NCBI GenBank assembly: GCA_037200965.1
Contig: JBBCGK010000001.1
Span: 1-64,000 of the forward strand
Reading direction: 5' to 3'
Origin: a bacterium
Lineage (GTDB): Bacteria > Patescibacteriota > Minisyncoccia > Phycocordibacterales > Phycocordibacteraceae
DNA: 64,000 nucleotides
A program made the translations under genes and the position numbers. Positions within the stretch are counted from its first letter, which is position 1. Every line of letters begins with the position of its first letter. The notes below the pieces were generated by a model. It was not told the DNA's origin, did not search any database, and was given only the letters and a program-made list of their open reading frames with translations. Shown here piece by piece: positions 12,147 to 47,767 of this stretch.

Positions 12147-12764
12147 ATGAGTTCTTTGGCAACCATGCCGCTTGCGTTCGACTACGAAGAACTGCGACGC
12201 GTACTTCAGACTCCGTCAATGTGGGCGTGCAGCGAACGGATTCTTCGATCGCATTTCAAGCCGGAGGCACGCGGATCAGCCGGGAACTACTATACGCTCC
12301 GGCCGACCAGGGACGAATATATCCTCACGCCAAAAGGCGACGAGATACTGCTTCACCTCGAAAGCGACTACGCGCTCGTCCTTGAATGCGACCTGGTACC
12401 GATCGCCTGCATCGGCTTTACCATGGATATTCTCGACACCCGCGTCCTGCACGTTATCCAGATACAAGGGACCAAGACGGAGCGCGCGGTAGCGTGCGTG
12501 CCTCAAGCGACAGCCCGCTTCAGGGCGAACTTGAACCGCCTGAAATGGGACGATGCGCTTGTCGATGTGCTCCTTGAAGTCGCGCGGCGCCTTGCGGTGG
12601 AGTCCGTGCGCATCCGCCCGGCCGAGATGAATCCCGAGTATAAGCGGGGCATGTGCCCTGATGACTTAAGAAACAGGCAACTGGTCACGCGCTATGACCG
12701 GACCGCGATGCGGCTCGGCTTCATGCTCGACCCGCGGGACGGGTGGTATGCGCGGACACCGTGA
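12147..12764 (+). CDS. hypothetical protein
   Basis: ATG at 12147 is preceded by GGAGG 6 nt upstream. The track start at 12141 is a GTG. No recognisable family. Confidence 0.45.
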   Translation: MSSLATMPLAFDYEELRRVLQTPSMWACSERILRSHFKPEARGSAGNYYTLRPTRDEYILTPKGDEILLHLESDYALVLECDLVPIACIGFTMDILDTRVLHVIQIQGTKTERAVACVPQATARFRANLNRLKWDDALVDVLLEVARRLAVESVRIRPAEMNPEYKRGMCPDDLRNRQLVTRYDRTAMRLGFMLDPRDGWYARTP

Positions 12765-12830
12765 ACTGACCGCCAGGCGCGCAAGCGCCTGGCGGTCGAA
12801 TCTTTCGCCTCCCGGCTGTATACTGCTTCA

Positions 12831-13868
12831 ATGGCGCACCAATCCCTGTACCGCACCTATCGCCCCTCCACCTTTGCCGAAGTCGCCGGGCAGCCGCAGG
12901 TAACGCAGCCGCTTGCGGAAGTCGTTGCCTCCAAAAAAGCGGGGCACGCATACCTCTTCGCCGGTTCCCGAGGCCTCGGGAAGACCAGCGCCGCGCGCAT
13001 TTTCGCACGGGAGCTCGGCGTAACCGAGAAGGACCTGTATGAAGTCGACGCGGCCTCGAACAACAGCGTCGAGGATATCCGCGCGCTTACCGAAGGCGTG
13101 TATACGCTCCCGTTCGAATCTCCCTATAAGGTGTATATCCTCGACGAGGTGCACATGCTCTCGAAGGCGGCATGGAACGCGTTTTTAAAGACGCTCGAGG
13201 AGCCGCCTTCGCACGCGATATTCGTCCTCGCCACGACCGACCTTGAGAAAGTGCCGGAAACCGTCCAGTCGCGCTGCCAGGTGTTCGAGTTCAAAAAGCC
13301 CTCACGGAGGGCGCTTGCCGAAGTGGTCGCGGATGTGGCGAAGAAGGAAGGATATGCGCTTGCGCCGGACGCTTCCGAGCTTGTTGCGCTTCTTGGCGAC
13401 GGCTCGTACCGCGATGCGCTTTCGATACTCCAGAAAGTACTTGCGGGTGCGAGCGGAAAAAAACTTTCGCGAGCTGACGTGGAAGGCGCCACGGGCGCGC
13501 CGAGGGGCGAGCGGGTGCATGAGCTCGTCGCCGCGGTCGCGAAAGGCGATCGGGGAAAGGCTTTAGCCGCTATCTCGCATGTTTCCAAAGACGGCGCCGA
13601 TCTGAAGCTTTTTCTTATGCTTGTGCTCGAGGCGCTGCGGTCCATCCTTCTTATCCGCCACGCGCCCGACCTTCGAAAGGAACTGGAAGCGGAGCTTGGC
13701 GCGGACGAATATGCCACGCTCAAGAAGTATGCGGACGAAAGCGGTTCGAATCTTACCCATACCGTTCTCCTCTCCTTCCTCACCGCTTCCGACCGCATTC
13801 GCTTCGCCCCCGTTCCCGAGCTTCCGCTCGAGCTTGCGGTGCTTGATGCCGTTCCCGAGGGGCGGTAG
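12831..13868 (+). CDS. dnaX: DNA polymerase III subunit gamma/tau (short form)
   Basis: AAA+ clamp-loader motifs (GSRGLGKTS Walker A, ILDEVHML Walker B, SRC motif TVQSRCQVFEF). Confidence 0.9.
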   Translation: MAHQSLYRTYRPSTFAEVAGQPQVTQPLAEVVASKKAGHAYLFAGSRGLGKTSAARIFARELGVTEKDLYEVDAASNNSVEDIRALTEGVYTLPFESPYKVYILDEVHMLSKAAWNAFLKTLEEPPSHAIFVLATTDLEKVPETVQSRCQVFEFKKPSRRALAEVVADVAKKEGYALAPDASELVALLGDGSYRDALSILQKVLAGASGKKLSRADVEGATGAPRGERVHELVAAVAKGDRGKALAAISHVSKDGADLKLFLMLVLEALRSILLIRHAPDLRKELEAELGADEYATLKKYADESGSNLTHTVLLSFLTASDRIRFAPVPELPLELAVLDAVPEGR

Positions 13869-16620: not shown

Positions 16621-17805
16621 ATGATCCGCCATCGACTTCTTTCCGGCATCGGCCTTCTCGCATTGGTAGGTATGTTCGGTGGCATACACGCGCCAAGCGT
16701 ACACGCCGCGGCACTATGCGTATTCGACCGCGACCTCGAGCTCGGGATAGAAGGAACGGACGTGCGCTGCCTCCAGCAGTATCTCAATAGCGCGGGCTTC
16801 ACCGTCTCCCTAAGCGGCGTCGGGTCTCCCGGCCACGAGACAACTCAGTTCAAGGACCTCACTAAAAAAGCGGTAGCGGCATGGCAGGCGGCAAACGGGA
16901 TCAGCGCGACAGGATATTTCGGTCCGGTTTCGCGCGCGAAGTACCTCAGGCTTGCCGGGGGAGCTCCGTCGGCTCCGGCCGCATCGGGCGACGAGGCCCT
17001 CAAGGCCCAGATCGCGTCCCTTCTCGCGCAGGTGAATGCGCTCAAGACATCCGCCCCGGCTGCCGCAAGCGGCAAGGCGCTTGACGCCCAGAATGCGATC
17101 AAGAAGGCGATAACGATGCTAAAGAACGCGGATGACGAGATAGACGACGCGAGCGGCGATATCGGATACGCGGACAAGGAGCTCGACGACGCGCGTGATT
17201 CCCTCTTCAGTGCGGTTAACTGGTACTTCAAGAACGATTTCGCCCAGGCCGTCACGGATGCGGACAAGGCATACGAGAAGGCGACCGACGCGTTTAAGGA
17301 CGCGGGCGGGGAGACGAGCGAGGACAAGACCGACGACTATATCGACAAGATAAGCGACAAGCTCGACGACGCGCGGGACAAGGTCGATGATTCGGACAGC
17401 TCGAACGTAAAGGAAGCGGACAACGATCTCGACGATGCGGAGGACTATCTCGACAAGGCATACGACGCCTTTGACGACGAGAAATACGACGACGCAAAGA
17501 GCTATGCCGCAAAAGCCCGCGACCTCATAGACGACGCGCTCGACGTCCTTGAAAGCAAGGGGGACAAGAACGATGCGAAGGACGCCATAAGCGACGCGGA
17601 AAACGCGATCGACGACGCGCAGGACGCTATCGACAAGGCCGACGACCGGGGGAAGGACGTGGATGACGCGAACGATATGCTCGATGACGCGAAGGCGAAG
17701 CTCAAGAAGGCGAACAGCGTCTATGATGACAAGGACTACGATAAAGCTGTCGACTACGCAAACGATGCGGAGGATCTTGCGAACGACGCGCAGGACGAGG
17801 TGTAG
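16621..17805 (+). CDS. secreted peptidoglycan-binding-domain protein with long acidic Asp/Ala/Lys-rich repeat region
   Basis: Signal-peptide-like N-terminus. PG_binding_1-like segment (...CLQQYLN...GYFGPVSRAKY). About 250 aa of D-rich low-complexity repeats (DDA, DKA motifs). Confidence 0.65.
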   Translation: MIRHRLLSGIGLLALVGMFGGIHAPSVHAAALCVFDRDLELGIEGTDVRCLQQYLNSAGFTVSLSGVGSPGHETTQFKDLTKKAVAAWQAANGISATGYFGPVSRAKYLRLAGGAPSAPAASGDEALKAQIASLLAQVNALKTSAPAAASGKALDAQNAIKKAITMLKNADDEIDDASGDIGYADKELDDARDSLFSAVNWYFKNDFAQAVTDADKAYEKATDAFKDAGGETSEDKTDDYIDKISDKLDDARDKVDDSDSSNVKEADNDLDDAEDYLDKAYDAFDDEKYDDAKSYAAKARDLIDDALDVLESKGDKNDAKDAISDAENAIDDAQDAIDKADDRGKDVDDANDMLDDAKAKLKKANSVYDDKDYDKAVDYANDAEDLANDAQDEV

Positions 17806-18583: not shown

Positions 18584-19492
18584 ATGAACAAAACCATTAT
18601 CGCAGTTGTAGCGGTCGTCGTTATTATCCTCATCGGCATCGGTGCCTATTTCTTTACTAAAACCGCCCCCGCCCCGGTGACTTCAGGGGAAACGGCATCG
18701 AGTACGGTACCGGTGCCGGAGGCTACGCAGGGAACGGCGCAAAGCGACGGCAAGACTTCGGTCATCGGCACCTCGGCCGGAGGAAATGCCATCACCGCGT
18801 ACCACTACGGCACGGGAGATGCCGAGCTTCTCTTCGTCGGCGGCATCCACGGCGGCTACGAGTGGAACACCGCTCTTGTCGCCTATCAGCTCATGGACTA
18901 TCTCGACGCGCATCCGGATGCGGTACCGAAGAACGAGAAAGTGACGGTCATCCCCGTCCTGAACCCGGACGGCCTTGAGAAAGTCGTCGGCACCACCGGA
19001 CGCTTCAGCGCTTCCGACGTGCCGTCCTCGCAGGCGGCTACCGTCCCCGGCCGCTTCAACGCCAATACCGTCGATCTCAACCGAAACTTCGACTGCGACT
19101 GGCAGGCCGAAGGCACCTGGCAAAGCACGAAGGTGAGCGGGGGCACGAGCGCTTTCTCCGAGCCCGAGAGCCAGGCGGTCAAGTCATACGTGGAAGCGCA
19201 GAAGCCGATGGCGGTCGTCGTCTGGTACAGCTCGGCGGGCGGCGTGTTCTCCTCGAATTGCCACGGCGGCGTCCTTCCGGAAACCGCAACCCTCACGAAG
19301 CTCTTCGCGGACGCGTCCGGCTATCCGGCTCACGCATCGTTCGATTTCTACGCCATTACGGGCGACATGGTGAACTGGCTCGCGAAGCTCAAAGTCCCGG
19401 CCATAAGCGTGCTTCTCACCAACCATACCGATACGGAATGGGATAAGAACTGGAAGGGCATCAGCGCGGTTCTCAACCACTACGCGGAGTAA
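18584..19492 (+). CDS. M14-family zinc carboxypeptidase, membrane-anchored
   Basis: N-terminal TM. M14 motifs (GGIHGGYEWNT, DLNRNFDC, SAFSEPES). Confidence 0.8.
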   Translation: MNKTIIAVVAVVVIILIGIGAYFFTKTAPAPVTSGETASSTVPVPEATQGTAQSDGKTSVIGTSAGGNAITAYHYGTGDAELLFVGGIHGGYEWNTALVAYQLMDYLDAHPDAVPKNEKVTVIPVLNPDGLEKVVGTTGRFSASDVPSSQAATVPGRFNANTVDLNRNFDCDWQAEGTWQSTKVSGGTSAFSEPESQAVKSYVEAQKPMAVVVWYSSAGGVFSSNCHGGVLPETATLTKLFADASGYPAHASFDFYAITGDMVNWLAKLKVPAISVLLTNHTDTEWDKNWKGISAVLNHYAE

Positions 19493-20373
19493 TGGGAGTT
19501 TCGAGAACCTGTCTCGTCATCGGCATTCTCGTTCTCGCGGTACTTGCCGCGGGGGCATGGATGCTTTTCGGCCGGCACGCAAAAGCGCCGGAACCCGCAC
19601 CGGCAGAGCCCCAGAAGGTTTCGGTTCCTGTTCCTTCTGCGAAAGGTATCGGTTCTTCCGTGGAGGGCCGTTCGATCACGGCCTATAGCTACGGAACGGG
19701 TCCGAAGCACCTGTTGTTCGTCGGCGGCATGCACGGCGGCTATGAGTGGAACAGCGTCCTTCTCGCATACCAGTTCATGGATTATCTTGCCGCGCATCCC
19801 GAAACCGTTCCCGCAAGCCTTACTATCGACGTAATACCGTCGATCAATCCGGACGGGGTCTTTAAGGCGGTCGGCAAGGAAGGCCGCTTTAGCGCCGCCG
19901 ATGCCTCGACCGATTCGAAGGTTCTCGCGTCGGCGCGCTTCAACGCGCACGCCGTCGATCTCAACCGCAACTTCGACTGCAAATGGCAGGCTACGAGCAC
20001 GTGGCAGGGGAGGCCCGTGAGCGCCGGAACGAGCGCCTTCTCGGAGCCCGAGAGCCGGGCGGTCAGGACAGTCGTTACGGAACATCACCCTGCCGCCGTC
20101 GTCTTCTGGCACAGCCAGGCAAATGCCGTCTATGCTTCCGAGTGCACGCAGGGAATCCTTCCCGGCACGCTTGCGAGCATGGACGCGTATGCGCATGCGG
20201 CGGGATATCCGGCGGTCAAAACGTTCGACGCATACCCGATCACCGGGGACGCCGAAGGCTGGCTCGCGTCAATCGGCATTCCCGCGATCACGGTTGAACT
20301 CGCGACCCACGAGACGGTCGAATGGGATCGCAACCTTCTCGGCATACAAGCGCTTATCGATCTCTATAAATAG
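19492..20373 (+). CDS. M14-family zinc carboxypeptidase (paralog of the upstream gene)
   Basis: Same motifs (GGMHGGYEWNS, DLNRNFDC, SAFSEPES). Start coincides with the upstream stop. Tandem duplication. Confidence 0.8.
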   Translation: MGVSRTCLVIGILVLAVLAAGAWMLFGRHAKAPEPAPAEPQKVSVPVPSAKGIGSSVEGRSITAYSYGTGPKHLLFVGGMHGGYEWNSVLLAYQFMDYLAAHPETVPASLTIDVIPSINPDGVFKAVGKEGRFSAADASTDSKVLASARFNAHAVDLNRNFDCKWQATSTWQGRPVSAGTSAFSEPESRAVRTVVTEHHPAAVVFWHSQANAVYASECTQGILPGTLASMDAYAHAAGYPAVKTFDAYPITGDAEGWLASIGIPAITVELATHETVEWDRNLLGIQALIDLYK

Positions 20374-23545: not shown

Positions 23546-23590
23546 CGGGCGCGGCTTGGATAAGCCGCGCCCGTTTCGTTTCACTTTTGC
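23546..23590. terminator. rho-independent terminator (12-bp GC-rich stem + T-run)
   Basis: CGGGCGCGGCTT (23546-23557), loop GGAT, AAGCCGCGCCCG (23562-23573), then TTTCGTTTCACTTTTG. Serves the convergent genes on both sides. Confidence 0.65.
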
Positions 23591-23946
23591 CGGGCGGCCT
23601 CGATCTTCCATGCCGCGGTCAGCTGGCGGCAGTCTTCGGCATAGGAGACTGGCGGTTTAAGCGACTCCTCGCCGTTCAGACCGAATGAGACGGCCTGGTT
23701 AAGCGGAATATCGATATCGGCGAGTCGGTCGAGGAACGATTTGCCGGTGAGATGCGCGACAACGTCGTTTCCGGGGTCGGCGATATTAAGCGTTCTCGAA
23801 TCTATTCGCGCTCTCCATGCTTTGAATCCTTTGTGATCGAAGTGCGCGGCGCAGTTCGCGACGCGTGCAGGCGGGGGAGTTCTCATTGCGTCGTCTCCGC
23901 AAAGGGTATCTGACGAGAACGATACTCTGCCCGCGCGGAAACGCAA
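23581..23946 (-). CDS. hypothetical protein
   Basis: 121-aa minus-strand ORF. The start may be the internal ATG (MRTPPP...). No family. Confidence 0.35.
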   Translation of the reverse strand: MRFRAGRVSFSSDTLCGDDAMRTPPPARVANCAAHFDHKGFKAWRARIDSRTLNIADPGNDVVAHLTGKSFLDRLADIDIPLNQAVSFGLNGEESLKPPVSYAEDCRQLTAAWKIEAARQK

Positions 23947-23989
23947 ATCGGGAACGTATCCCCGATACGAAGGGAAAGACCATGTTCGA

Positions 23990-26776
23990 ATGCTTTATAC
24001 TGTACTCATCATGGAAGGAATCGCGCAGCCGATACAGACGCCGGAAGAAGAGCTCGCCTATCTTCGGGCGCAAGTGGCGGCAAAGGAAAACGAACTTCGG
24101 GGACTTCGCAGAGAAAGCGCGCCTCCGGTAGCGACGGCCGAGATCGTGCATGAGCGCATCATCCATCATAAAGAAACCCCCGCGGAAGAAGTTCTCGCAC
24201 CGGCGTATCAAATGCCCGAGACCGAAGTCAAGGCGCTCGCGCTCAACCTCGACCCGAAGGACGACGATGCGACCATCACCGAACTCATGCAGATCATAGA
24301 AACGAGAGGCATCAGGAATGCGCTTTCGGTTCTCGAAAAGATGGACAACCCGCATATCGAGGACGATTTCCACAGGTTCCTCGTGCAGTACGTCCTTTCG
24401 GGCATGCAGGTCAAGGGACTCGACGAGAAGGCTCCGACCTGGAAAGCGCTCCATATGACGCTTTACGAAGTCGCGCTTCCGGAGCCCGACGCCAAGGGCG
24501 AAGGGCGGGAGAAGCCGCTTAAGGAACTGGTCTCCGCGATGGAACAGTTCTATGCGGGCATGCTTTCGGTGGGAGAGGCGTACGCCGGGGAGCCGCGCTA
24601 TTTTTCGATGGAGCTCGCGGTTCCCGTCGGTCGCGCCGACCTTCTTTTCTATGTCGCGGTTCCAAACGGCAAGCGCGATCTCTTCGAGAAGCAGCTCCTG
24701 GCGATCTTTCCCCATGCGCATATCGCGCCGCAGCCAAACGATTATAACGTCTTCGCCGAAGACGGAACGTCGCTCGTTTCCGTCGCAAAGCTCTCCGAAA
24801 AGCCCATGCTTCCCCTTAAGGACTACGCTGACTTCGACTACGATCCCCTCAACGGGATATTGAACGCGTTCGCGAAGATCGCCGCGGAAGGCGAGGGGGC
24901 GGCGCTGCAGCTCCTTATCGAGCCCGCAGGAGACCGGTATCTCAAGCACTATCGCAAAGTTCTCGATGCGCTCAGGAAGGGCAAGAAGCGAAGCGAAGCC
25001 TTCTCGCTTCCCGAGACCGCGTTTGGGGAGGTAGCAAAGGAGTTCGGCTCCTTCTTCCTTCCGGGAGGAAAGTCCAGGGACGGGCAAAAGCAGCGGGAGG
25101 CCGAACAGCGGCAGATCGAGGCGAATAAGACCGATATCGAAGCGCTCGAAAAGAAGCTCGGGTCTCCCGTCGTCGAAGCGACGATGCGGCTCGTGGTATC
25201 GGGGACCGACGCGGTACGCGCGGGCCAGGTGCAGGGCGAGCTGGAGTCGGCGTTCAACCAGTTCGGCAATACCAGGGGGAATACGCTCGCGTGGGAGCGG
25301 CCGTCCGGAAGTACGGGCAAGAGAGCGATCCGCGATTTTTCGTTCCGTACCGCCGTCGGTTCCGCGCTTCCTCTTTCGCTTAAGGAGGTGACCACGCTCT
25401 ATCACTTCCCGCCAAACGGCATCAAATCCGCGCCGAGCCTCAAGCAGGCGCGGTTTTCGACCGCCGCCGCGCCGCTCACGCTCTCCGGAGAAGGGACGCA
25501 GATCGGCACCAACACGTTCCGCGGCGTCGAGACGAAGGTGTTTATCGCGGACGAAGACCGCCTCAGGCATCTCTATGCGATCGGGCAGACCGGCGCCGGA
25601 AAGACCGGCCTCCTCCGGACGCTCATCGACCAGGATGTCCGGGCCGGAAAGGGCGTCTGCTTCATCGACCCGCACGGAAACGACATTCTCGAGGTGCTTG
25701 CCGGCGTTCCGCCCGAGCGCTATGAGGACGTCATCTATTTCGACCCGGCGGATACGTCGCGGCCGTTCGGGCTGAATCTTCTCGAATACGATCCGTCGCG
25801 CCCCGAACAGAAGACCTTCATCGTGAACGAGATCCTCGCCATTTTCCGCCGCCTCTATGGCGACGTGCCCGAGTCGATGGGTCCCGCCTTCGAGCAGTAC
25901 TTCAGGAACGCGACGCTTCTCGTCATGGAGGATCCCGCAAGCGGTTCGACCATACTCGATATCCCGCGCGTGCTCGCGAACAAGGCGTTCCGCGACCTGA
26001 AGCTTTCGAGAAGCAATAATCCCGTCGTCAATCAGTTCTGGACCGAGATCGCGACCAAGGCCGAAGGCGAAGCGTCGCTTCAGAACATCGTGCCGTATAT
26101 CACGAACAAGTTCGACGACTTCACCGCGAACGACTTCATGCGCCCGATCGTCGGGCAGCAGCAGTCCTCCTTCCATTTCCGGGAAGTGATCGATAACAAG
26201 AAGATACTCCTCGTGAATCTTTCGAAAGGAAGGCTCGGGGAACGAAACGCGAACCTCATCGGACTCATCGTGGTCGGCAAACTTTTCATGGCCGCGCTCT
26301 CACGGGCCGACAATCCCCGGGCAGAGTACAATCCCTTCTATCTCTATATCGACGAGTTCCAGAACATCACGACCGACTCCATCCCCGGCATCCTTTCCGA
26401 AGCCCGGAAATACAAGCTTTCGCTCACCATGGCGCACCAGTTCCTTTCACAGGTTGACGAGAAGATCCGCGACGCCGTATTCGGGAACGTGGGCAACATG
26501 GCCGTGTTTCGGGTGGGCGAGGAGGATGCCGAGTTCTTCGAGAAGCAGTTCGCGCCGGCGTTCTCCGCGACCGATTTCGTGAACCTCGAAAACCGCAACG
26601 CCTATGTCCGCATTCTCGCAGGGGGGGTACCCCAAAAGCCCTTCAACATAAAGACCCTGAACCTCAAACCGGGGAATCCCGACCAGATAGACGACCTCAG
26701 GCAGTTATCCTCCCTGACATATGGCAGGGACCGTGGTATGGTTGAAGGCATGATTAGAAGCCGGTATATTTCGTAA
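23990..26776 (+). CDS. P-loop NTPase of the TraG/VirD4 (T4CP)/HerA-FtsK superfamily with a ~450-aa unknown N-terminal region
   Basis: 928 aa. Walker A GQTGAGKTG, a DPHGN segment, Walker B YLYIDEFQN, and a C-terminal TMAHQFLSQV...NVGNMAVFRVG motif resembling TraD/TraG C-termini. The long minus-strand ORF 23786-26176 is its antisense shadow. Confidence 0.6.
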   Translation: MLYTVLIMEGIAQPIQTPEEELAYLRAQVAAKENELRGLRRESAPPVATAEIVHERIIHHKETPAEEVLAPAYQMPETEVKALALNLDPKDDDATITELMQIIETRGIRNALSVLEKMDNPHIEDDFHRFLVQYVLSGMQVKGLDEKAPTWKALHMTLYEVALPEPDAKGEGREKPLKELVSAMEQFYAGMLSVGEAYAGEPRYFSMELAVPVGRADLLFYVAVPNGKRDLFEKQLLAIFPHAHIAPQPNDYNVFAEDGTSLVSVAKLSEKPMLPLKDYADFDYDPLNGILNAFAKIAAEGEGAALQLLIEPAGDRYLKHYRKVLDALRKGKKRSEAFSLPETAFGEVAKEFGSFFLPGGKSRDGQKQREAEQRQIEANKTDIEALEKKLGSPVVEATMRLVVSGTDAVRAGQVQGELESAFNQFGNTRGNTLAWERPSGSTGKRAIRDFSFRTAVGSALPLSLKEVTTLYHFPPNGIKSAPSLKQARFSTAAAPLTLSGEGTQIGTNTFRGVETKVFIADEDRLRHLYAIGQTGAGKTGLLRTLIDQDVRAGKGVCFIDPHGNDILEVLAGVPPERYEDVIYFDPADTSRPFGLNLLEYDPSRPEQKTFIVNEILAIFRRLYGDVPESMGPAFEQYFRNATLLVMEDPASGSTILDIPRVLANKAFRDLKLSRSNNPVVNQFWTEIATKAEGEASLQNIVPYITNKFDDFTANDFMRPIVGQQQSSFHFREVIDNKKILLVNLSKGRLGERNANLIGLIVVGKLFMAALSRADNPRAEYNPFYLYIDEFQNITTDSIPGILSEARKYKLSLTMAHQFLSQVDEKIRDAVFGNVGNMAVFRVGEEDAEFFEKQFAPAFSATDFVNLENRNAYVRILAGGVPQKPFNIKTLNLKPGNPDQIDDLRQLSSLTYGRDRGMVEGMIRSRYIS

Positions 26777-26779
26777 TCC

Positions 26780-29095
26780 ATGTCTTCATCAGGCGAAAAT
26801 CCTCCGCGCAGATTTACCGCCAGCAGCTTTAAAGGGACTCCACTTAACGAAGAACCGCAAAACATACAGACAGGGGAACCTGCAGCGTTTTCGCAGGCAG
26901 AGGCACCTGCTGTCGTGAATGCGGGCAAAACAGCTGATGCGCCCAGGCAGGAAATTGAAGCTGCTTTGCGTTTTCGTCTCAAGGAGGGAGATTCTCCGGA
27001 CATAAGAGATTTGCGCAAGGATACCTATGAAGAACTCATGGAACTTGCGGATGATATCCGCGGCTCAGGCAGGGAGCCCGGCGATATGGAGGAGTGGCGG
27101 AAAGCATATCGTGAATACGAGAAATTCAACGACATGTGCGACAAATTCACAAAGGCGAATGACGCCGAGGCTGCGCAAATGGGGCCGAATATGCAAAAGC
27201 AATACGATCTCTTCATACGCAGGACAGACGAAGCCTACGATACTCTGACGAAAGCGAACGTACCGAGCGAAGAAGCGCCAACTCCTGCGGTTACCCAAAT
27301 TCCCGGTTCCCCGGGGCCCGGTAGCAAACCGCTTGGCGATGAAGGATATAAATCCATTCCTCCTGAAAAGAAGGATGAAATCCCTCCGGATACAGCCCCG
27401 GTCGAAGAATCAGATATCGATACCGATAAAGGGGTCGGCGATGATATGGGCAGGGACGAAACTGCCGCTCCCCCGGAAGTAGATCCGGTTATTGAAAGAG
27501 AGAAGCTGAAGGAAAACATCGAAGCGCTTAATGCGGCTGAGGCGGCTCGTTGGAAAGCAGAAAATCCGAGCAAAGAAGAAACTGAGTCTAAGGTACCAGA
27601 GGATTCAGGTACGCATGTTGAAGACCGGCCTGCGCCTGAGAAGAGACCTGAGCCGGGGAGTATGGCTGAACATCTGGCGCAAGTCGGATGGCATCGGGAT
27701 AAGACTTTGGATCGTGAAGCTACCGAGAAGCTCGGTTCGGGTTCCAAGGCTTTTAACTGGTGGAAGCAGAACGCGGAAGATTACAACGGATTCCGTTTCC
27801 GCGATAAGCTCGTGCTTGGCGCGGTCATGACCGTGGTCGGCTTCGGGGCCACTGTCGTCATCGGGCTCCCCGGCGCGGTTGCCGCGGCGTTAGCGCTGCC
27901 CTTCAGGCTTTTTACGAGTTCCGCTACCGGTCTTGGCGCTGGCATAGCTACCGATGCTCTCATCCAGCGCTCCGCATACAAAAAGGATGCGGCAGGCAAG
28001 GGACTTGGGTACCTAACGGGCAATACGCGCAACAGGAAGATTGCGGCGGGGGCGATCGGCACGGCCACTGGCGTCGCCACGTTTTTCCTCGGACAGTGGC
28101 TTTCGGGCGTCGTCGGCAACTGGCTCGGTCATGCTCCCGGTGTTGAGGCCGGGGCCGGTACTCCGAACGTAGAACACCATTTCGATCCGAAAGCAATGAT
28201 CGAGGTTCAAAAGGGACATGGCGCGATCAGCATGATCGAAGACCTTAAGGAACATCTGCGGCACCTTTACGAGCATACCGATCCAAGCAAGATTCCGGCC
28301 GGGGCGAAGGCCGTACTTGGTGCCGATCCGACGAAACTTGCGGAACAGCTGCAGGCATATCAGCCGGGAGAATCTCTCAACAGCCAGCTTATTCCGGAGC
28401 ATGCGCATCTCGGTATCGGCCAAGACGGATCACTTATGTACAGCGCTGACGGTGTCAAGAATCCGCTCACGCTTATCGACGGACAAGGTCATCAGGTGGC
28501 TAGCTGGAATGACCATATGATGCGTCCGGGCGCACACCCGGCCCCTTCAACCGAAGCGCAAGCTTCGCAGCCGGGCGACGCCAGCGCTTCCGATCCGAAC
28601 TCGCTCCAATACAGGGAAATGGAGATGTCGAAAGCTTCGCATGGCGATCTGGTGCCGGACGCAAGGGGTGTCGGCCACCCGGCGTCTGAAATGGGCGGCT
28701 CGGAGCGGCTTGCTGCACATTCGGCACCCGCTCCCGCACTTGAGACAGCGTCTTCCAACCTTACTTCCAATGCGCTCCATACATTGCAGGAGGCAGCCCC
28801 GGGTATGCAGCCTGATCCAACGCTGACGCAGGAAATACTCTCCGCAAATGCGAAAGATATCAACGCGTACCTGTTGCACGACGGACGCGTATCCGTATTC
28901 GGCGGTTCGCCCGCCCTCTACGAGCAGTTCGCGAAGAACTTCGCGGGCGCGATGCGTACCGATGTCGTTTTGCCGGTGAACCAGAACGGTACTATACTAG
29001 ATTATATTATTCACCCCGACGGGACTTCGGAGTTAGTAACGCCGAAGAGTCCGACACCGATTGTCGAACAGCTTGTGATGAAACTGGCTAAGTAG
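26780..29095 (+). CDS. large (771 aa) low-complexity protein with central TM helices; hypothetical
   Basis: Starts 4 nt after the ATPase gene. Pro/Glu/Asp-rich disordered N-terminal half. Two hydrophobic segments around aa 330-440 (LVLGAVMTVVGFGATVVIGLPGAV...). Confidence 0.55.
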   Translation: MSSSGENPPRRFTASSFKGTPLNEEPQNIQTGEPAAFSQAEAPAVVNAGKTADAPRQEIEAALRFRLKEGDSPDIRDLRKDTYEELMELADDIRGSGREPGDMEEWRKAYREYEKFNDMCDKFTKANDAEAAQMGPNMQKQYDLFIRRTDEAYDTLTKANVPSEEAPTPAVTQIPGSPGPGSKPLGDEGYKSIPPEKKDEIPPDTAPVEESDIDTDKGVGDDMGRDETAAPPEVDPVIEREKLKENIEALNAAEAARWKAENPSKEETESKVPEDSGTHVEDRPAPEKRPEPGSMAEHLAQVGWHRDKTLDREATEKLGSGSKAFNWWKQNAEDYNGFRFRDKLVLGAVMTVVGFGATVVIGLPGAVAAALALPFRLFTSSATGLGAGIATDALIQRSAYKKDAAGKGLGYLTGNTRNRKIAAGAIGTATGVATFFLGQWLSGVVGNWLGHAPGVEAGAGTPNVEHHFDPKAMIEVQKGHGAISMIEDLKEHLRHLYEHTDPSKIPAGAKAVLGADPTKLAEQLQAYQPGESLNSQLIPEHAHLGIGQDGSLMYSADGVKNPLTLIDGQGHQVASWNDHMMRPGAHPAPSTEAQASQPGDASASDPNSLQYREMEMSKASHGDLVPDARGVGHPASEMGGSERLAAHSAPAPALETASSNLTSNALHTLQEAAPGMQPDPTLTQEILSANAKDINAYLLHDGRVSVFGGSPALYEQFAKNFAGAMRTDVVLPVNQNGTILDYIIHPDGTSELVTPKSPTPIVEQLVMKLAK

Positions 29096-29115: not shown

Positions 29116-29424
29116 ATGCAAGACGAAATCCAGCGCGCGGTTGCAGAAGAGCTTGGCATCGAAGGACTCTCGAGCGCAGAGCAGCAGGAGCTTATAGCGC
29201 AGATGACGGGTATTATGCTCAAAGCGGCGACTTTGGCGCTTCTTGAGAAGCTGCGCGAAGATAAGCGCGATGAGTTCGTTATCATTGCAGAGTCCAAGGA
29301 CGAGGAGGCGCTCCGGACATTCCTTGAAAAGGAACTTCCCGGAAGCGAGGAAATCGTCCGTGCGGCGGTCAGCGAGGAGATCCGCCGCTTTAAGGAATAT
29401 CAAAGCGGAATACCAGCCGCATAA
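29116..29424 (+). CDS. hypothetical protein
   Basis: 102-aa acidic helical ORF. Confidence 0.4.
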   Translation: MQDEIQRAVAEELGIEGLSSAEQQELIAQMTGIMLKAATLALLEKLREDKRDEFVIIAESKDEEALRTFLEKELPGSEEIVRAAVSEEIRRFKEYQSGIPAA

Positions 29425-29435: not shown

Positions 29436-29960
29436 ATGAACACCGTCTCTACCGGCATTGCAGTAGCGCTCGCGCTTGCGATTATGGCGTTCTTCTTCCT
29501 TCCCGGCCCCTTTCCGTTCCATGCGGCAACAATGCCTGCCGAGGACGCTTCCGCAGACCTGCGGCTCGCAACCAGTACCGAAGGGAACCCGTCAGATATA
29601 ACCACTAACCAAAACGTCATGACGAATGCGACAGAACTTCAGATCAGGGATATCGCGGTCGGTACGGGCCCTGCGGTCAAGGCGGGCGATGCTATCACCG
29701 TCAACTATGTCGGCATGCTCGCCGACGGCACGGTATTTGACGCTTCCGCAAACCACAGCGCAGGCGGCGTTCCCTTCACTATCGGTGTCGGGCAGGTCAT
29801 TCCGGGCTGGGACCAAGGCCTTATCGGCATGAAGGTCGGCGGCAAGCGCGAGCTCGTGATACCCGCTTCGCTCGCATACGGCAGTCAGGGCGCGGGAAGC
29901 GCCATTCCGCCAAACGCGACGCTCATCTTCGAGATAGAGCTCTTGAAGATCGGAAACTAA
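29436..29960 (+). CDS. FKBP-type peptidyl-prolyl cis-trans isomerase (membrane-anchored/secreted)
   Basis: N-terminal hydrophobic segment. FKBP core (VNYVGMLADGTVFD...IPGWDQGLIGMKVGGKRELVIPASLAYG). Confidence 0.85.
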   Translation: MNTVSTGIAVALALAIMAFFFLPGPFPFHAATMPAEDASADLRLATSTEGNPSDITTNQNVMTNATELQIRDIAVGTGPAVKAGDAITVNYVGMLADGTVFDASANHSAGGVPFTIGVGQVIPGWDQGLIGMKVGGKRELVIPASLAYGSQGAGSAIPPNATLIFEIELLKIGN

Positions 29961-29967: not shown

Positions 29968-31209
29968 GTGGGCGCGATTACTTTCAAGATAGAGGCACGG
30001 GCGCCACATGGCGGTGCCCGTGCCGGCGTTATAACCACCGCGCACGGAGCGATACGGACGCCCGCCTTCGTTCCGGTCGGCACCAAGGCCGATGTGAAGG
30101 GAATCCTCCCGGAGCTTCTCGCACGCGAAGGCGCGCAGGTCGTGCTTGCGAACACCTATCATCTCTATCTCCAGCCGGGCGAGGCGGTCGTCAAGGAGGC
30201 CGGAGGGCTTGCGAAGTTCATGAACTGGCGGGGGCCGACCATGACCGACTCCGGCGGGTTCCAGGTATTCTCGCTTGGCGCTGCGTTTGGCAAGAAGGTA
30301 TCGAAGTTTTCCGGTGCGATTGACGGGGAAATGAGCGAAAAGGAAGATCAGATCGCGGTCTTTGATGACTCCCTCGCTTCCCAGCACGGGCAGCTCGCGA
30401 TCGTCGACGACGAGGGTGTCACCTTCACCTCGCATCTTGACGGGTCGCTCCACCGCTTTACGCCCGAGCGCTCCGTCGAGATCCAGCATGCGCTCGGAGC
30501 CGATATCTTCTTCGCGTTTGACGAGTGCACCGCGCCGACCGAGCCGTATGCATACCAGAAGGAAGCGATGGAGCGTACGCACAGATGGGCGGGGAGAAGT
30601 CTAAAGGCCCATCGGCAGAATATCGGGGCGAACAGGATGCAGGCGATATTCGGCATCGCGCAGGGCGGGCAGTTCGACGACCTGCGGCGTATAAGCGCGC
30701 GGGAGATCGGGGACATGGGCTTCGACGGATTCGGACTTGGCGGTTCCTTCAGCAAGAAGTACGGTGAGCATTCGCTCGAATCAGCGCTCAAGATGCTTTC
30801 CGAAATCCCGCCGGAGATGCCGGTGCACGGACTTGGCGTTGGCGAGCCGGGCGATATCCTTCTTGGTATAGCTCACGGGGTCGATCTTTTCGACTGCGTC
30901 GCCGCTACCCGCATCGGCAGGCACGGGAGCATTTATACGAAACGGGGAGTCCTGCATCTTCGGGGAGAGAAGTTCAGGAATGATTTTTCCGTGCTTGATC
31001 CGGAAACGCCGATGGAATCGACCGCGGGATTCACCCGCGCGTACGTCGGGCACCTGATCCGGTCCGGAGAGACGCTCGGCTCCGTCATTTGCTCGCTTCA
31101 TAACCTTGGTTTCATCCTGCGGCTCGTCGACGGGGCGCGGGAGGCTATTACCAAAGGACATTTTGATGAGTACCGTGCCGCTTTCCTTAGCGGCTACTAC
31201 GGCCGTTAA
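29968..31209 (+). CDS. tgt: queuine tRNA-ribosyltransferase
   Basis: Tgt motifs (TPAFVPVGT, DSGGFQV, FAFDEC, C-terminal zinc ligands CxCxxC...H). Confidence 0.9.
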   Translation: MGAITFKIEARAPHGGARAGVITTAHGAIRTPAFVPVGTKADVKGILPELLAREGAQVVLANTYHLYLQPGEAVVKEAGGLAKFMNWRGPTMTDSGGFQVFSLGAAFGKKVSKFSGAIDGEMSEKEDQIAVFDDSLASQHGQLAIVDDEGVTFTSHLDGSLHRFTPERSVEIQHALGADIFFAFDECTAPTEPYAYQKEAMERTHRWAGRSLKAHRQNIGANRMQAIFGIAQGGQFDDLRRISAREIGDMGFDGFGLGGSFSKKYGEHSLESALKMLSEIPPEMPVHGLGVGEPGDILLGIAHGVDLFDCVAATRIGRHGSIYTKRGVLHLRGEKFRNDFSVLDPETPMESTAGFTRAYVGHLIRSGETLGSVICSLHNLGFILRLVDGAREAITKGHFDEYRAAFLSGYYGR

Positions 31210-31670: not shown

Positions 31671-32675
31671 TTGAATTCTAGCTTGAAACGCAACAACCCG
31701 TATTGAAAAGCGCATACCCGCAGGTACGCTAGGAGTGTTGAATCACCTAAGCACCAACGGGTATGCATACACACAATACGCGCGACATGCGCGTTTCGCT
31801 AGGCGCGCTCCTGCGCGCTGGTGTGAAGAAAGCTGGGATCGCGCGGCAACTGGGCGTCCACCGCTCGACCATCTCAAGGGAGTTGAAACGGAACGCGAAG
31901 AAGAACGGGCGGTATCACGCCACGCACGCGGACGTGCGTGCGAAGGCACGCCGCATGAAGAGCAAGGAGGCGGGACGCCTCCTTGCAAACAATCAGCAGT
32001 TGGCTGACCTTGTCGAGGCACTCCTTGACCCACTCGTCTCTCCAGAGGTGATCGCACACCTTCTCGACATATCGCACGAGACGATATACGCGTGGCTATA
32101 TCGCACCCGTCCTGATCTGTTGGCTCGTCTGCCGCAGCGAGGAAGGAAGCGCCGCCGATATGGCTCAAAGCGTACGCAGAAACAAGGATGGACCAAGAAC
32201 GTGCGTTCCATTGAGGAGCGCACAGAACCTGGCTGGGAGGGCGATACCGTCAAAGGCGCAGGTCGTGAACGCATCCTCACCCACGTGCACCAGAGCTTGT
32301 ATCTCGTTGCCGACCTAATCCCGAACGGCACGGCAGATGTCGTGCATGCGGTACTGAAGTCGCATCAGAAAGTCACCGGGACCATCACGTACGACCGCGG
32401 GAGCGAGTTCGCACTCTGGCAGTTCATTGAACGTGATACCGATGCCACCGTGTACTTCGCACACGCACACCATCCGTGGGAGCGCGGGAAGAACGAGAAT
32501 ACCAATGGCCGCCTGCGGCGACCATTCCCCAAACGGCTGAACCTGGGTACCATATCCAAAGACGACCTTGCGGACGTGGTGGACCTCATGAACCACACGC
32601 CGCGGAAGTCTCTCTCCTGGCAGACCTCGTGCGTGCGCTTTGGGAAGGCGTGTTGCGTTTCAGATTAGAATTCAA
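31671..32675 (+). mobile_element. IS30-family insertion sequence (~1005 bp) with imperfect 24-bp terminal inverted repeats
   Basis: IR-L TTGAATTCTAGCTTGAAACGCAAC (31671-31694). IR-R reverse complement TTGAATTCTAATCTGAAACGCAAC (32652-32675), 21/24 identical. Flanked by the direct repeat GCTGG (31666-31670 and 32676-32680). Confidence 0.75.
31763..32668 (+). CDS. IS30-family transposase
   Basis: 301 aa. N-terminal HTH (GIARQLGVHRSTISRELKRN) and a DDE catalytic region typical of IS30. The stop lies inside IR-R. Confidence 0.85.
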   Translation: MHTHNTRDMRVSLGALLRAGVKKAGIARQLGVHRSTISRELKRNAKKNGRYHATHADVRAKARRMKSKEAGRLLANNQQLADLVEALLDPLVSPEVIAHLLDISHETIYAWLYRTRPDLLARLPQRGRKRRRYGSKRTQKQGWTKNVRSIEERTEPGWEGDTVKGAGRERILTHVHQSLYLVADLIPNGTADVVHAVLKSHQKVTGTITYDRGSEFALWQFIERDTDATVYFAHAHHPWERGKNENTNGRLRRPFPKRLNLGTISKDDLADVVDLMNHTPRKSLSWQTSCVRFGKACCVSD

Positions 32676-32697: not shown

Positions 32698-33697
32698 ACC
32701 CCTAAACGCCAAAAGGCGTCCGGTATTCTGGTTGTGTTGGCAACCTAATACTGAACGCCTCGTGGTATGGAAAAGTGTATACCCACATACGCCCGCTTTC
32801 AATGGATCAATCATCCTCTGGTACGTACCGTTCTCGCTCCTTTCTTCCCGTACGCCGGTACCGGAAGGCGCGGATACGACAAGGTCACGCTCTTCCTCTG
32901 GCTCGCATACAAGCAGCTCCATGGCTGCACGTATCGAGACCTCGAAAGCATGAGCGGCATCGACCAGACCACGTTCGTGAAGTTCAGGGGACGACTCAAG
33001 CAGTCCCGTGGATTTGAACACTTGTTCGGGTGCCTGACGCAGCGCGTGCTTGCGCACCTCCCCGCACTCAACCTCATACTCGACTCCTCTTTCGTCAAGA
33101 CATACTCGGGACACGACGAGGAGGGTTCGGCATATTCCGGACACAAGAAAGCCAACGGGTACAAGACCCACGAAATCATTGATCGGGACACCAGACTTCC
33201 GGTATTTCAAAGCGTCACGCCCGGTGCAGTGGCGGACATCACGGAGGGCAGGCGACTCGTGTCGAGAGCGCCCCCTGATCTTCCGGTCGCTTCGTTTGCC
33301 GCCGACAAGGGATACGACAGCGAGTCGTTCGTCTTTGACCTTGCGCGCAAGTGGAGTATCGAACCGGCGATACCACTCCGACGCATGAAGAAAGACGGCA
33401 ACCGAACGAATTGAACCCTTCGGGGAGCCCGTCGTTCGAGCGATCCTGCCGAATATCGCGCCCGAACCGGCGTCGAGCGACATTTCTCCCGCAAGAAAGG
33501 CGTCTTCAATCTTGGTGAAGAACGCACTCGGCATCTCGAGAATTTTCGAGCCAACGCATACTTCGTATCCGGCCTGCAGATTCTCGAGTGGCTGAGCACA
33601 AATGAAACCGTACCGGCCTAGCGGCTGTATGGGAGGGTTTTTCAGCGGGCTCTGGTATAATGTCCAACTCCAATCCCCCTAAGGGAAAAGTGTATCG
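32698..33697 (+). mobile_element. IS5-family element remnant (boundaries approximate)
   Basis: Transposase pseudogene. Short direct repeats CCCCTAA and GGAAAAGTGTAT occur near both ends (32698/32768 and 33676/33683). No clear inverted repeats found. Confidence 0.35.
32767..33621 (+). pseudogene. IS5/IS1182-family transposase interrupted by an in-frame TGA (33412-33414)
   Basis: ORF 32767-33414 (DDE_Tnp_1-like). It continues in the same frame after the TGA with the typical C-terminus ...AEYRARTGVERHFSRKKGVFNLGEERTRHLENFRANAYFVSGLQILEWL. Other genes here stop at TGA, so this is a nonsense mutation or readthrough. Confidence 0.6.
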
Positions 33698-42908: not shown

Positions 42909-42984
42909 GGGCCGTTAGCTCAGTTGGTAGAGCACCTCATTTGCAATGAGGGGGTCGCAGGTTCGAATCCTGTACGGTCCACCA
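42909..42984 (+). tRNA. tRNA-Ala(TGC) with encoded CCA
   Basis: Acceptor GGGCCGT/ACGGTCC with G3-U70 (Ala identity). D-arm GCTC-AGTTGGTAGAGC. Anticodon stem CCTCA/TGAGG with loop TTTGCAA (anticodon TGC). T-arm GCAGG-TTCGAAT-CCTGT. Discriminator A then CCA. Confidence 0.9.
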
Positions 42985-44515
42985 AATCTGATTTTTCAGC
43001 AACAACCTGCTGATTTATCTCGTAAATCCAACCTAATTTCGCGGTTCCAAAACCTGTATTTTTATCGTATCTAATTCCTTCGGGAAGGACGAGTTTTTGG
43101 AACCGCTTTTGGGCGTCTACCCCGATGCTGCTCCATGTGCGGGGCAGGTCTGAAATAAACGTGGTAGCGTAGGCTATTGCTGCTTCTATGTCGAGCTTAT
43201 CGAGGTTGTTTTCTCGAATGGTGATTTGCTTTGCGGCAATCTCATTGTCGGTCTTCTCGATAATCTCCTTGCCGAAGTCCTCGCTGACCGTGCCTTTGCG
43301 AATCATCTCTGCGTACTCGAACTTCTTTTGGCGCAGCTCCTCAAGTTCGGTTTGCTGCTGCTTGATAATATCGTCGAGTAATGAGGCATTGCTGCGCCAT
43401 ACTTCTACGACAATCTCGCTGAACAGCGCGAGGAACCCTTGCTTTGGAGTGATAGTGCCAAGCCATGCAAGAAAGTCTGTGTGCATCTTTTCTTGCGAAA
43501 TGTTCTTGGCATACATGGGGCACTGCTTATTGTGGCAATGGTAGTAAGAATAAACGCCGCCGTTGCCGCGCGGATGACTGCCACTCAACCCGATACTGCA
43601 AGCGGCGCAGCGTACGTCCCTTGTGAGCGGGAAATCGGGGTGATTCTTGAGCTTCTTGATGACCTTCGGAACCTTTCCTTTGCGGATAAGCTGTACCTGG
43701 ATAAACTCCTCGGGCGTAATCATCGCCTGGTGCTTACCCTCGACTTCTTTGCCCGTGAACGGATTGAGGATGATGCCCGCATAGAACTTATTGGAAAGAA
43801 TCTCGTCAATCTTCTGCGGATAGATTTTGCGGCCTCGCAGCGTCGTGAGACCCCATTGGTTTGCGAGCTTTGCCAGCTCGACGTTGCCACTCACTTTCTT
43901 CTCAAGACAGGCACGGAAAAGCGCCTGAATTATCGGGAAGCGCTTTGGGTCTGGGTCATCGGCTTCCGTCTTTTTCATGCCGCGCCTCTTGAATTGCTTG
44001 CAGGTATAGCCAAGCGGCGACTTCCAGGGATAGATACCCTGATTTATCTTCTCGCTCATACCATCAGAGCACTGCTGCTTCCTGATAGCGTTCTCATAGT
44101 CCGCTGATGCGGCCGCAACCGTCTCGACTAGTTTCTCAATCGGCTTATTGCCGATAGGTTCGGTAACGGAAAGAAGTGTCGTCCCATAACCGGACAACTT
44201 CTTTCTTATAAAGAAATGGTCTTCTGTGCTGCGAGAAAATCTGTTGACACGAAGCACTAGGAACGCATGAATCTGGCCGTTGTGCTTGCGGCAGAACTCG
44301 ATGGCTCTCAAGAACTCTTTTCGATTATTGAGCGATAGGTCTTTTGCTGATTGCCCTTCCTCTCGGAATACTTCGACGACTTCATAGCTGTTGCGCTCGC
44401 AATACCTCCTGCACTCTGCCTCCTGAAACTCCAAGCTCGTACCGTCAACCTGCTCGTCGGATGAGACGCGCACGTAGATGATTGCTTTTCTTGTTGTGGA
44501 AGTTTTCATGCTCAT
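42920..44515 (-). CDS. large serine recombinase (integrase)
   Basis: 531 aa. N-terminal resolvase catalytic domain (AIIYVRVSSDEQ), recombinase domain, Zn-ribbon (CAACS...CHNKQC) and a coiled-coil. The last ~19 codons (GFEPATPSLQMRCSTN) are read from tRNA-Ala sequence. Confidence 0.8.
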   Translation of the reverse strand: MSMKTSTTRKAIIYVRVSSDEQVDGTSLEFQEAECRRYCERNSYEVVEVFREEGQSAKDLSLNNRKEFLRAIEFCRKHNGQIHAFLVLRVNRFSRSTEDHFFIRKKLSGYGTTLLSVTEPIGNKPIEKLVETVAAASADYENAIRKQQCSDGMSEKINQGIYPWKSPLGYTCKQFKRRGMKKTEADDPDPKRFPIIQALFRACLEKKVSGNVELAKLANQWGLTTLRGRKIYPQKIDEILSNKFYAGIILNPFTGKEVEGKHQAMITPEEFIQVQLIRKGKVPKVIKKLKNHPDFPLTRDVRCAACSIGLSGSHPRGNGGVYSYYHCHNKQCPMYAKNISQEKMHTDFLAWLGTITPKQGFLALFSEIVVEVWRSNASLLDDIIKQQQTELEELRQKKFEYAEMIRKGTVSEDFGKEIIEKTDNEIAAKQITIRENNLDKLDIEAAIAYATTFISDLPRTWSSIGVDAQKRFQKLVLPEGIRYDKNTGFGTAKLGWIYEINQQVVAEKSDLVDRTGFEPATPSLQMRCSTN

Positions 44516-44520
44516 GTGTT

Positions 44521-45417: not shown

Positions 45418-45737
45418 TTTTGAGGCGGAAACTGCTCGACAAGAGCTGCGGGCAAGCGTTCGACCAACTCCTTCCGTACCAAAAGCGCATCTTCATCACC
45501 GCGCGAATCAACGCCAAGCGTAATGCTCGTGCCGAAGCAGTGCACGCCACGCTGATTTATGCAGACGAATCCTGCGGCGAGCGCTAATGCTGGCGACTCG
45601 ACCACGCTGCTGTGCAATATTTCACTGTCGAACACGAGAGCTTTCCCTGCGGTAGTGACGACGTACTTCATGGGGATGCGTCCAGCGATGAAGTCCTCCC
45701 ATTCTTTTGTTTTTGATGTGTCGTATTCCATAGTCAT
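45414..45737 (-). CDS. hypothetical protein
   Basis: 107-aa ORF overlapping the tyrosine recombinase start by 4 nt (operon). Confidence 0.4.
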   Translation of the reverse strand: MTMEYDTSKTKEWEDFIAGRIPMKYVVTTAGKALVFDSEILHSSVVESPALALAAGFVCINQRGVHCFGTSITLGVDSRGDEDALLVRKELVERLPAALVEQFPPQK

Positions 45738-46000
45738 TTCTTGGGTAGCTTGCTATCGAGGTACAAGCCGGTGAGTCCTACGAGAGCAATGATGAGCGCC
45801 GCAAGCCATTCTTGGTCGAATCCCGATAGAAGCTCATCGAGATGCAGCCAGAGGAAGACAATCGCTCCGATGATGAACAGTGCTTTGCCCGTGTTCCAAA
45901 CTTCTCGCCAGGTTATCTTCGACCTTGTAGGGATACCGGCATCGGCCGTATTTTCCGCTAGCTTTTGCGTCCGTTTTCCAATGTGATTTTCGTTGCTCAT
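45734..46000 (-). CDS. small membrane protein (hypothetical)
   Basis: 88 aa with two TM helices. 4-nt overlaps on both sides. Confidence 0.4.
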   Translation of the reverse strand: MSNENHIGKRTQKLAENTADAGIPTRSKITWREVWNTGKALFIIGAIVFLWLHLDELLSGFDQEWLAALIIALVGLTGLYLDSKLPKK

Positions 46001-47709: not shown

Positions 47710-47767
47710 TAGTTTGATATACTATGACCATCGGCGTGAGGGATTATTATTAGACCGCCGCTTCAAT

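Follow-up and report, generated by a model that had tools for sequence, protein, structure and literature searches.

Patescibacteria are dependent on host cells. To our knowledge, their type IV secretion system (T4SS) is the first T4SS shown to be essential for the growth of a bacterium. The essentiality of the patescibacterial T4SS is also stated in a recent review (2025, PMC12857230). A study of these systems counts 5,713 homologues of VirD4-type type IV coupling proteins (T4CPs) across 2,918 genomes of Patescibacteria; just 148 of these homologues lie close to virB4, and relaxases are nearly absent (Quinonero-Coronel et al. 2025, PMC12102498). According to the same study, the T4CP homologue of Ca. 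Southlakia epibionticum is dispensable for epibiotic growth, other T4SS genes being essential, and exaptation of patescibacterial T4CP homologues is not ruled out by the authors. Orphan VirD4-like ATPases in bacteria belonging to the Candidate Phyla Radiation (CPR) are therefore known in outline from that study. Here, we describe a putative ATPase gene of this kind and the gene of a large membrane protein that follows it (hereafter, the partner) in a stretch of 64,000 nt of contig JBBCGK010000001.1 (GenBank assembly GCA_037200965.1, positions 1 to 64,000), which we call the window. The original prediction, made from the sequence alone, had assumed a CPR-like bacterium, and the organism is indeed of the Paceibacteria/Parcubacteria type, one group of these ultra-small CPR bacteria. 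The two open reading frames (ORFs) and the parts of the ATPase are as follows.

23990..26776, + strand: ATPase gene (ORF), 928 aa, predicted soluble T4CP-type ATPase
24011..25450, + strand: N-terminal region of the ATPase (PF26449, DUF8128), with a helical segment at model residues ~11-129 and an alpha/beta domain at ~142-463
25475..26773, + strand: C-terminal nucleoside triphosphatase (NTPase) domain of the VirD4/VirB4/HerA type, with Walker A at nt 25583-25606 and Walker B at nt 26339-26356
26780..29095, + strand: partner gene (ORF), 771-aa fast-evolving membrane protein

Classification and predicted architecture of the ATPase

Neither ORF is there by chance; both are genes. More than 3,128 homologues of the ATPase, mostly in Paceibacteria/Parcubacteria, establish its gene as real. 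The same holds for the partner, since an orthologue 45% identical (E 1.5e-125) stands at the corresponding place in the nearest relative, which has an ATPase 87% identical, and since the partner forms one BLASTP family with 51 other ORFs found downstream of the ATPase. The identical ATPase-partner locus is present in four independent assemblies. The NCBI gene call places the ATPase start at 24011 (921 aa), and the gene callers of the collection use the start that gives 928 aa. The partner had been placed 4 nt past the ATPase stop, which is accurate: the spacer is 3 nt (tcc) and the ATG lies 4 nt from the last stop base. The GC content of the two genes (~0.55-0.61) is normal for the window. A 796-aa ORF antisense to the ATPase (23786..26176, - strand) has no gene support; it is the kind of shadow ORF that GC-rich DNA typically yields.

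In library scans, the C-terminal ~430 residues of the ATPase fall among the type IV coupling proteins. Pfam TraG-D_C reaches 25.1 bits (cut-off 22); T4SS-DNA_transf, TrwB_AAD_bind (13.3 bits), DUF87 (19.8 bits with the cut-off at 23.2, and only over the P-loop) and FtsK_SpoIIIE (11.6 bits against 24) stay below their cut-offs. The NCBIfam matches are to TraD and CD1115 VirD4-like models, and the VirB4 model TIGR00929 gives 16.2 bits against a cut-off of 643. Across 24 diverse members of the family, DUF87 was found in 21, TrwB_AAD_bind in 20 (best E 2.1e-8) and TraG-D_C in 20, and no Pfam family beyond T4CP, HerA or generic P-loop types appeared. An hhalign comparison with R388 TrwB gave a probability of 93% (E 2.5e-7) over RHLxxxGxTGxGKT...DPxG, and one with TrwK/VirB4, as a single sequence, gave 9-12%; TrwB and DotL are the top PDB sequence matches. 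The PADLOC profile mad8 matches the NTPase domain only (E 1.6e-12). All four motifs quoted in the original prediction are present: the Walker A and B motifs, GQTGAGKT (residue 532) and YLYIDE (784), are both intact, and DPHGN (560) and TMAHQ (813) accompany them. By its sequence, then, we classify the protein as a homologue of VirD4-type T4CPs with a VirD4-type P-loop NTPase. It is neither of the types named beforehand as speaking against the prediction, a housekeeping FtsK/SpoIIIE and a YjgR-type protein, and its signatures are T4CP-specific; the combination of an FtsK motor signature, an N-terminal membrane domain and a gamma domain was not found in the ATPase.

The region before the NTPase domain had been described as some 450 residues of unknown nature. 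It measures ~480 aa and is a catalogued Pfam family, PF26449 (DUF8128), an assignment that comes from precomputed matches on the identical 928-aa product and on homologues. PF26449 is present on nearly all of the 120 homologues listed and, in an exhaustive search, in 932 clusters at 50% identity; among the matches listed, it is N-terminal in near-full-length members (~800-1,120 aa). No transmembrane (TM) segment is predicted in the ATPase, the KD19 maximum being 1.59 at residue 753, within an NTPase helix (H744-767). The DUF8128 region stands where classical T4CPs have their transmembrane domain.

The AlphaFold2 model of the ATPase has a mean predicted local distance difference test (pLDDT) score of 75, with 83-92 over residues 170-460, and divides into four parts. 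From the N-terminus, these are a helical segment modelled with lower confidence, an alpha/beta domain modelled confidently (~142-463), a linker and the NTPase with an insert. This insert, at model residues 599-728, is all-helical, with only helices between the strands at 574-577 and 732-736. The C-terminal NTPase has the VirB4-type fold, and the structure comparison ranks the VirB4 C-terminal domain highest (25.1), followed by the DptH C-domain (23.9), TrwB (22.2), HerA (21.9), DotL (21.8), Cag-beta (18.8) and FtsK (12.7). The best Foldseek matches are to full-length TrwK/VirB4, over ~916 alignment columns (E 2.7e-11), with TM-scores against full-length TrwK of 0.24-0.34 that are compatible with a single-domain fit only. 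These long alignments alone hint at a VirB4-like overall plan of N-domain plus NTPase. We treat this likeness as unproven because the profile-profile comparison of the N-terminal domains of the ATPase and VirB4 was negative (probability 0.1%, E 0.56); nor did single-sequence or 11-sequence VirB4 profiles reveal any similarity between the N-domains.

Gene order and conservation

The ATPase lies in a tightly packed block that is probably co-transcribed and comprises, besides the partner, the following genes.

29116..29424, + strand: small DUF5663 gene (Pfam DUF5663, E 1.2e-5), directly downstream of the partner
29436-29960, + strand: FKBP-type peptidyl-prolyl isomerase with an N-terminal membrane anchor (Pfam FKBP_C, 1.2e-32)
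29968-31209, + strand: tRNA-guanine transglycosylase (tgt), annotated as TGT in homologous loci

The gaps from the partner through DUF5663 and FKBP to tgt measure 20, 11 and 7 nt. Terminator-like hairpins stand upstream of the ATPase (23546-23573, + strand) and just past tgt (31239-31219, - strand). Synteny was sampled over 80 species-representative loci, and all those with an ATPase at least 61% identical and enough downstream sequence keep the order ATPase, partner (where present), DUF5663 (in some), FKBP, tgt, uvrB, histidine kinase, response regulator and uvrA. The genes of the block lie 3-20 nt apart. The DUF5663 gene occurs in some of the syntenic loci, 14 with the window included, and was likewise observed in L002 and L104. 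Compared with the proteins of the window, median identity is 66% for the ATPase, 67% for Tgt, 81% for UvrB and 54% for FKBP, so the ATPase, being close to Tgt, evolves like a housekeeping enzyme. In the clade whose ATPases are 51-54% identical the context differs, with ndk following the gene in 6/20 loci and a metallo-beta-lactamase (MBL)-fold protein in 5/20; no other recurrent neighbour, and no functional lead, emerged there.

The absence of relaxase, VirB4, other T4SS and pilus genes near the pair, part of the original prediction, was borne out by Pfam scans of the other large ORFs in the window. Likewise, no relaxase or T4SS (VirB4) gene lies within 10 kb on either side of the ATPase in loci L002-L004. 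The window carries a set of housekeeping genes (relA/spoT, topA, serS, dus, dnaX, radC, tgt, uvrB, uvrA, uvrC and ddl) plus an unrelated integrated island.

Around the block, the stretch from the FMN reductase terminator to the ATPase gene holds an ORF of at most 121 aa (101 aa according to gene callers; 23581-23946, - strand) that matches nothing in Pfam and that gene callers predict in three other assemblies of the same organism. In the window, tgt and uvrB are separated by an inserted IS30-family transposase (31763-32668) and IS5-like transposase ORF (32767-33414). The nearest relative (L104) has uvrB right after tgt, and the other syntenic loci also have the two genes closer together than the window.

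Remote relatives of the whole ATPase are found in phages as phrog_5156, in Bacillus phage YungSlug (L086, 2249-6301) and Geobacillus phage TP-84 (L085, 4008-6272). In YungSlug, two small membrane proteins and a peptidoglycan metallopeptidase precede the gene, which recalls a minimal module for crossing the envelope. Stand-alone T4CP-like ATPases of 412-446 aa, 31-38% identical to the C-terminal domain and without DUF8128, lie beside large serine recombinases on IMG/VR contigs (L088-L093), for example on L088 (7836-9176 and 9363-10904), and one contig carries two copies. Such C-terminal-only relatives next to serine recombinases are consistent with a mobile-element origin of the family, and they may be mobile-element ancestors of the chromosomal genes.

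The downstream membrane protein

The partner was harder to trace. A single-sequence search of a database of 5.8 billion proteins recovered only the protein itself, and a profile of 47 positional partners added just two more proteins (P0122 and P0123), because the family is too divergent and too low in complexity for a word-seeded search. Position was more informative: in 55 loci, including the window, a large ORF (422-1,267 aa) lies just past the ATPase stop, most starting within ~14 nt, and 52 of the 55 form a single BLASTP component at E<1e-5. Identity to the window partner within the family is only 13-25%. The protein can be divided as follows.

26780..27805, + strand: residues 1-342, acidic (net charge -27), mostly disordered with predicted long helices, probably cytoplasmic
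27806..28114, + strand: residues 343-445, Gly/Ala-rich hydrophobic membrane region of ~3 helices
28175..28537, + strand: residues 466-586, conserved post-membrane module (HHFDP...KGHGAISM...HMMRPGAH), probably extracytoplasmic
28796..29092, + strand: residues 673-771, conserved C-terminal alpha/beta module (MQPDP...YLLHDGRV..FGG...TDVV...HPDGT...VMKL), probably extracytoplasmic

The protein had been described as largely disordered, membrane-embedded and resistant to annotation, which agrees with the pLDDT below 50 of its N-terminal region (helices H53-159, H236-261 and H295-335), its hydrophobic helices and the lack of any library family. Other parts of that description need correction. Instead of only two central TM helices there are probably three hydrophobic helices, at ~343-362, 363-385 and 421-445 (hydropathy peaking at 2.24 (residue 344) and 1.28 (residue 421); AlphaFold2 helices H340-361, H365-404 and H417-445), and most family members have a hydrophobic segment in the middle. 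The composition, given as Pro/Glu/Asp-rich, is just moderately biased (P 8%, E 8%, D 6%, A 12%). The claim that there are no detectable domains holds for Pfam, NCBIfam, PADLOC and PHROGs, but three modules are conserved within the protein's own family. The post-membrane module forms a near-invariant block in A3 and a weak family-wide motif (pLDDT 58-76), and a Pro/Ser/Ala-rich linker joins it to the C-terminal module. Identity to the nearest relative is 20% in the N-terminal region, 50% in the TM region, 66% in the post-TM module, 27% in the linker and 52% in the C-terminal module. No signal peptide-like N-terminus is readable in the sequence and K/R-rich segments flank TM1 and precede TM3, so we infer an N-in, C-out topology with the modules outside the cell, in which the K/R-rich loop at 397-420 (net +6) would face the cytoplasm.

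Possible functions of the ATPase and its partner

We lean, at somewhat less than even confidence, towards an account in which the ATPase is an exapted, ring-forming translocase motor of the T4CP type that acts at the membrane, possibly docked there by the partner. Such a motor would no longer have a membrane anchor of its own and would have acquired a private N-terminal domain. Judging by TrwB, VirD4 and HerA, it would most likely form a ring that, powered by ATP hydrolysis, feeds through or passes on a polymer (DNA or unfolded protein) on the cytoplasmic side of the membrane. It may also cooperate with the MPF-FATA-like T4SS whose genes Patescibacteria carry elsewhere. Through its cytoplasmic region, the partner may tether the anchorless ATPase to the membrane and connect it with the cell surface, without being obligatory for the ATPase, and the ectodomain would be exposed at the surface as two small modules on Pro-rich linkers. 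An anchorless T4CP-type motor and a membrane protein with a large cytoplasmic region make a complementary pair, and two other observations speak for such pairing: a member of the partner family follows the ATPase in nearly all sampled species with an ATPase at least 61% identical, and the spacing is near zero.

Several observations weigh against this account. Two classical T4CP features are missing: the ATPase lacks the transmembrane domain, and nothing in the 64-kb window links it to a relaxase or T4SS. In the one patescibacterium tested genetically, the T4CP homologue was not needed for epibiotic growth (PMC12102498), and it may not be the orthologue of this family. The partner is absent from the clade at 51-54% identity, where no neighbour but ndk (6/20 loci) recurs, and from a coherent subclade of seven species (L021, L026, L040, L050-52 and L055), in which FKBP directly follows the ATPase. 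In L032, the ATPase is kept and the partner is reduced to 128 aa; this ORF (12748-13134) stands at the partner position, its C-terminus (IDSRGQLVLTTGG...) resembles the D..G.L.F motif of the family, and it may be a decayed partner remnant. Adjacency is itself weak evidence of joint function, because the whole block is syntenic with uniformly tight spacing. The dedicated pair proposed in the original prediction therefore comes out weak, as the partner follows the ATPase only where the whole block down to uvrA is syntenic, and has been lost in places. Conserved unrelated neighbours and a partner absent from homologous loci had been named in advance as signs against it; the neighbours are indeed conserved and unrelated, and the partner is absent only from the distant clade and the subclade that lost it. 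As the ATPase functions without the partner in some species, functional coupling between the two is plausible but unproven, and DNA uptake or export or host attachment by the pair, as first suggested, is speculation.

The motor could instead be a T4SS-independent housekeeping DNA motor, cytoplasmic like HerA/FtsK and engaged in repair, segregation or the processing of incoming DNA, with the partner an unrelated surface protein that shares its operon. We consider this possible but rather unlikely. Housekeeping-level conservation, the fixed chromosomal position, the missing membrane anchor and the persistence of the ATPase after partner loss all fit such a role, as do uvrB, uvrA, uvrC, radC and topA as neighbours, a dprA homologue in the locus of the closest relative and the dispensability of the published T4CP homologue for epibiosis (PMC12102498). 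However, the clade at 51-54% identity does not keep the uvr linkage, which probably reflects synteny inherited by descent; no nuclease partner (NurA, Sir2 or a similar type) lies beside the ATPase, and the signatures, TraG-D_C and TrwB_AAD_bind, are specific to T4CPs and not to FtsK or HerA. That T4CP-type ATPase domain would also suit a coupling protein dedicated to the essential MPF-FATA-like T4SS, whose genes lie elsewhere (often near dnaA), and moving effectors or nucleic acids to or from the host, with the partner as membrane receptor or adaptor carrying a diversifying, host-facing ectodomain. A long distance between t4cp genes and virB4 is common, and T4SSs occur widely in Paceibacteria (PMC12102498); the partner linkers diverge very fast and the folded modules are kept, as expected for a surface-exposed protein, and the phage relatives adjoin membrane proteins and a peptidoglycan hydrolase. 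Yet the 64 kb covered hold no evidence of a T4SS in this genome, neither a relaxase nor a known effector signal turned up, some species do without the partner, the N-terminal domain is unlike that of every characterised T4CP, and the T4CP homologue was non-essential in the very organism whose T4SS genes are essential (PMC12102498). A role as such a coupling protein is, in our estimate, unlikely.

Bolder still is the idea that the two proteins form a minimal device for translocation, complete in itself and specific to Paceibacteria, with a soluble T4CP-type motor of VirB4-like two-domain plan docked to a diversifying, surface-exposed membrane partner, which would transfer DNA or protein between the ultra-small cell and its host independently of any canonical T4SS. 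We hold this to be quite improbable; if it were true, the DUF8128 N-terminal domain would represent a form intermediate between VirB4 and the T4CPs. An anti-phage or anti-plasmid defence component of the HerA/DptH/MADS type is highly improbable. It is suggested by the mad8 match over the NTPase domain and by the remote homologues in Bacillus and Geobacillus phages (phrog_5156), but these similarities do not extend beyond the common NTPase fold, there are no further mad, dnd or effector genes beside the ATPase and the partner has no defence-model match. The level of conservation is atypical of defence genes, and the ATPase is a syntenic core gene with housekeeping surroundings and normal GC, the real defence island of the window lying at 42.9-58.4 kb. 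We rejected an identity as a defence system on this genomic context, a syntenic housekeeping locus and not an island.

Other features of the window

An integrated island (42909-58425) adjoins tRNA-Ala(tgc), with GC down to 46-52%. Its genes, and three genes that lie upstream of the ATPase, are listed below.

42920-44515, - strand: serine recombinase of the island
44521-45417, - strand: tyrosine integrase of the island
47865-49769: Mod of a type III restriction-modification pair
49772-52402: Res of the same pair
52399-55491: 1,030-aa fusion of a caspase (Peptidase_C14) domain and a HamB-like DEAD-box helicase
55481-56320: S49 peptidase
56989-58425, - strand: second serine recombinase of the island
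16621-17805: peptidoglycan-binding protein, upstream of the M14 pair
18584-19492 and 19492-20373: tandem paralogous M14 zinc-carboxypeptidase genes with N-terminal membrane anchors and a start/stop overlap

The caspase-helicase fusion looks like an unusual defence gene.

Comparison with known systems

With the T4CPs (VirD4/TrwB/TraD/TraG/DotL), the ATPase shares the P-loop context, the TraG-D_C and TrwB_AAD_bind signatures and the all-helical insert in the nucleotide-binding domain. It differs from them in having the soluble DUF8128 region in place of an N-terminal transmembrane domain, in showing no relaxase or T4SS linkage in the window and in being a syntenic chromosomal core gene and not part of a mobile element. 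VirB4 proteins (TrwK, ConE/PrgJ-type) resemble it in their two-part plan, a soluble N-terminal domain of ~400-480 aa plus a C-terminal NTPase; however, their N-terminal domains have no sequence similarity to that of the ATPase, which also lacks VirB3, VirB6 and VirB8 neighbours. Unlike the hexameric translocases of the HerA/FtsK type, including defence HerA and DptH, the ATPase has no HAS-barrel and no nuclease or effector partner, its neighbours being an FMN reductase, a membrane protein, DUF5663 and FKBP. The phage family phrog_5156 (Bacillus phage G gp156, TP-84 and the YungSlug 'ATPase domain protein') matches as a profile over residues 201-922 (E 1e-67), which includes part of the N-terminal domain besides the NTPase, but its members are only ~20% identical phage proteins of unknown function, with Firmicutes as hosts. 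The likeness to MADS (mad8) is confined to the NTPase, and the other mad genes are not in the locus.

Closest in setting are the orphan VirD4-type homologues of Patescibacteria (PMC12102498), which belong to the same phylum, have a t4cp-like gene far from virB4 and raise the same question of exaptation. Such pairs had been called largely uncharacterised, which is right as regards function; however, orphan VirD4-type genes of this phylum had been described before, with possible exaptation discussed (PMC12102498). The passages of that paper covered here make no mention of DUF8128, a missing anchor, a fixed housekeeping locus or a fast-evolving downstream membrane protein. A literature search found the term 'DUF8128' in no paper, a search on MADS gave nothing useful, and a paper on archaeal-parasite Paceibacteria does not mention the ATPase gene. 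The DUF8128 architecture, the fixed housekeeping locus and the fast-evolving membrane protein downstream are, as far as we found, described nowhere.

To specialists in T4SSs and CPR bacteria, the locus will be unsurprising after the 2025 paper, yet it is a well-defined and testable candidate. For annotators, it is a reason not to take genes of this kind as a sign of conjugation, and if the motor does work without a T4SS, it would be a new use of the coupling-protein fold. It also offers a specific candidate pair for membrane docking, substrate translocation and host interaction. Patescibacteria carry many VirD4-like genes apart from T4SSs, and this locus defines one such family concretely: predicted to be anchorless, with a private N-terminal domain, housekeeping-level conservation, a fixed site and, downstream in one clade, a surface or membrane protein that diverges rapidly.

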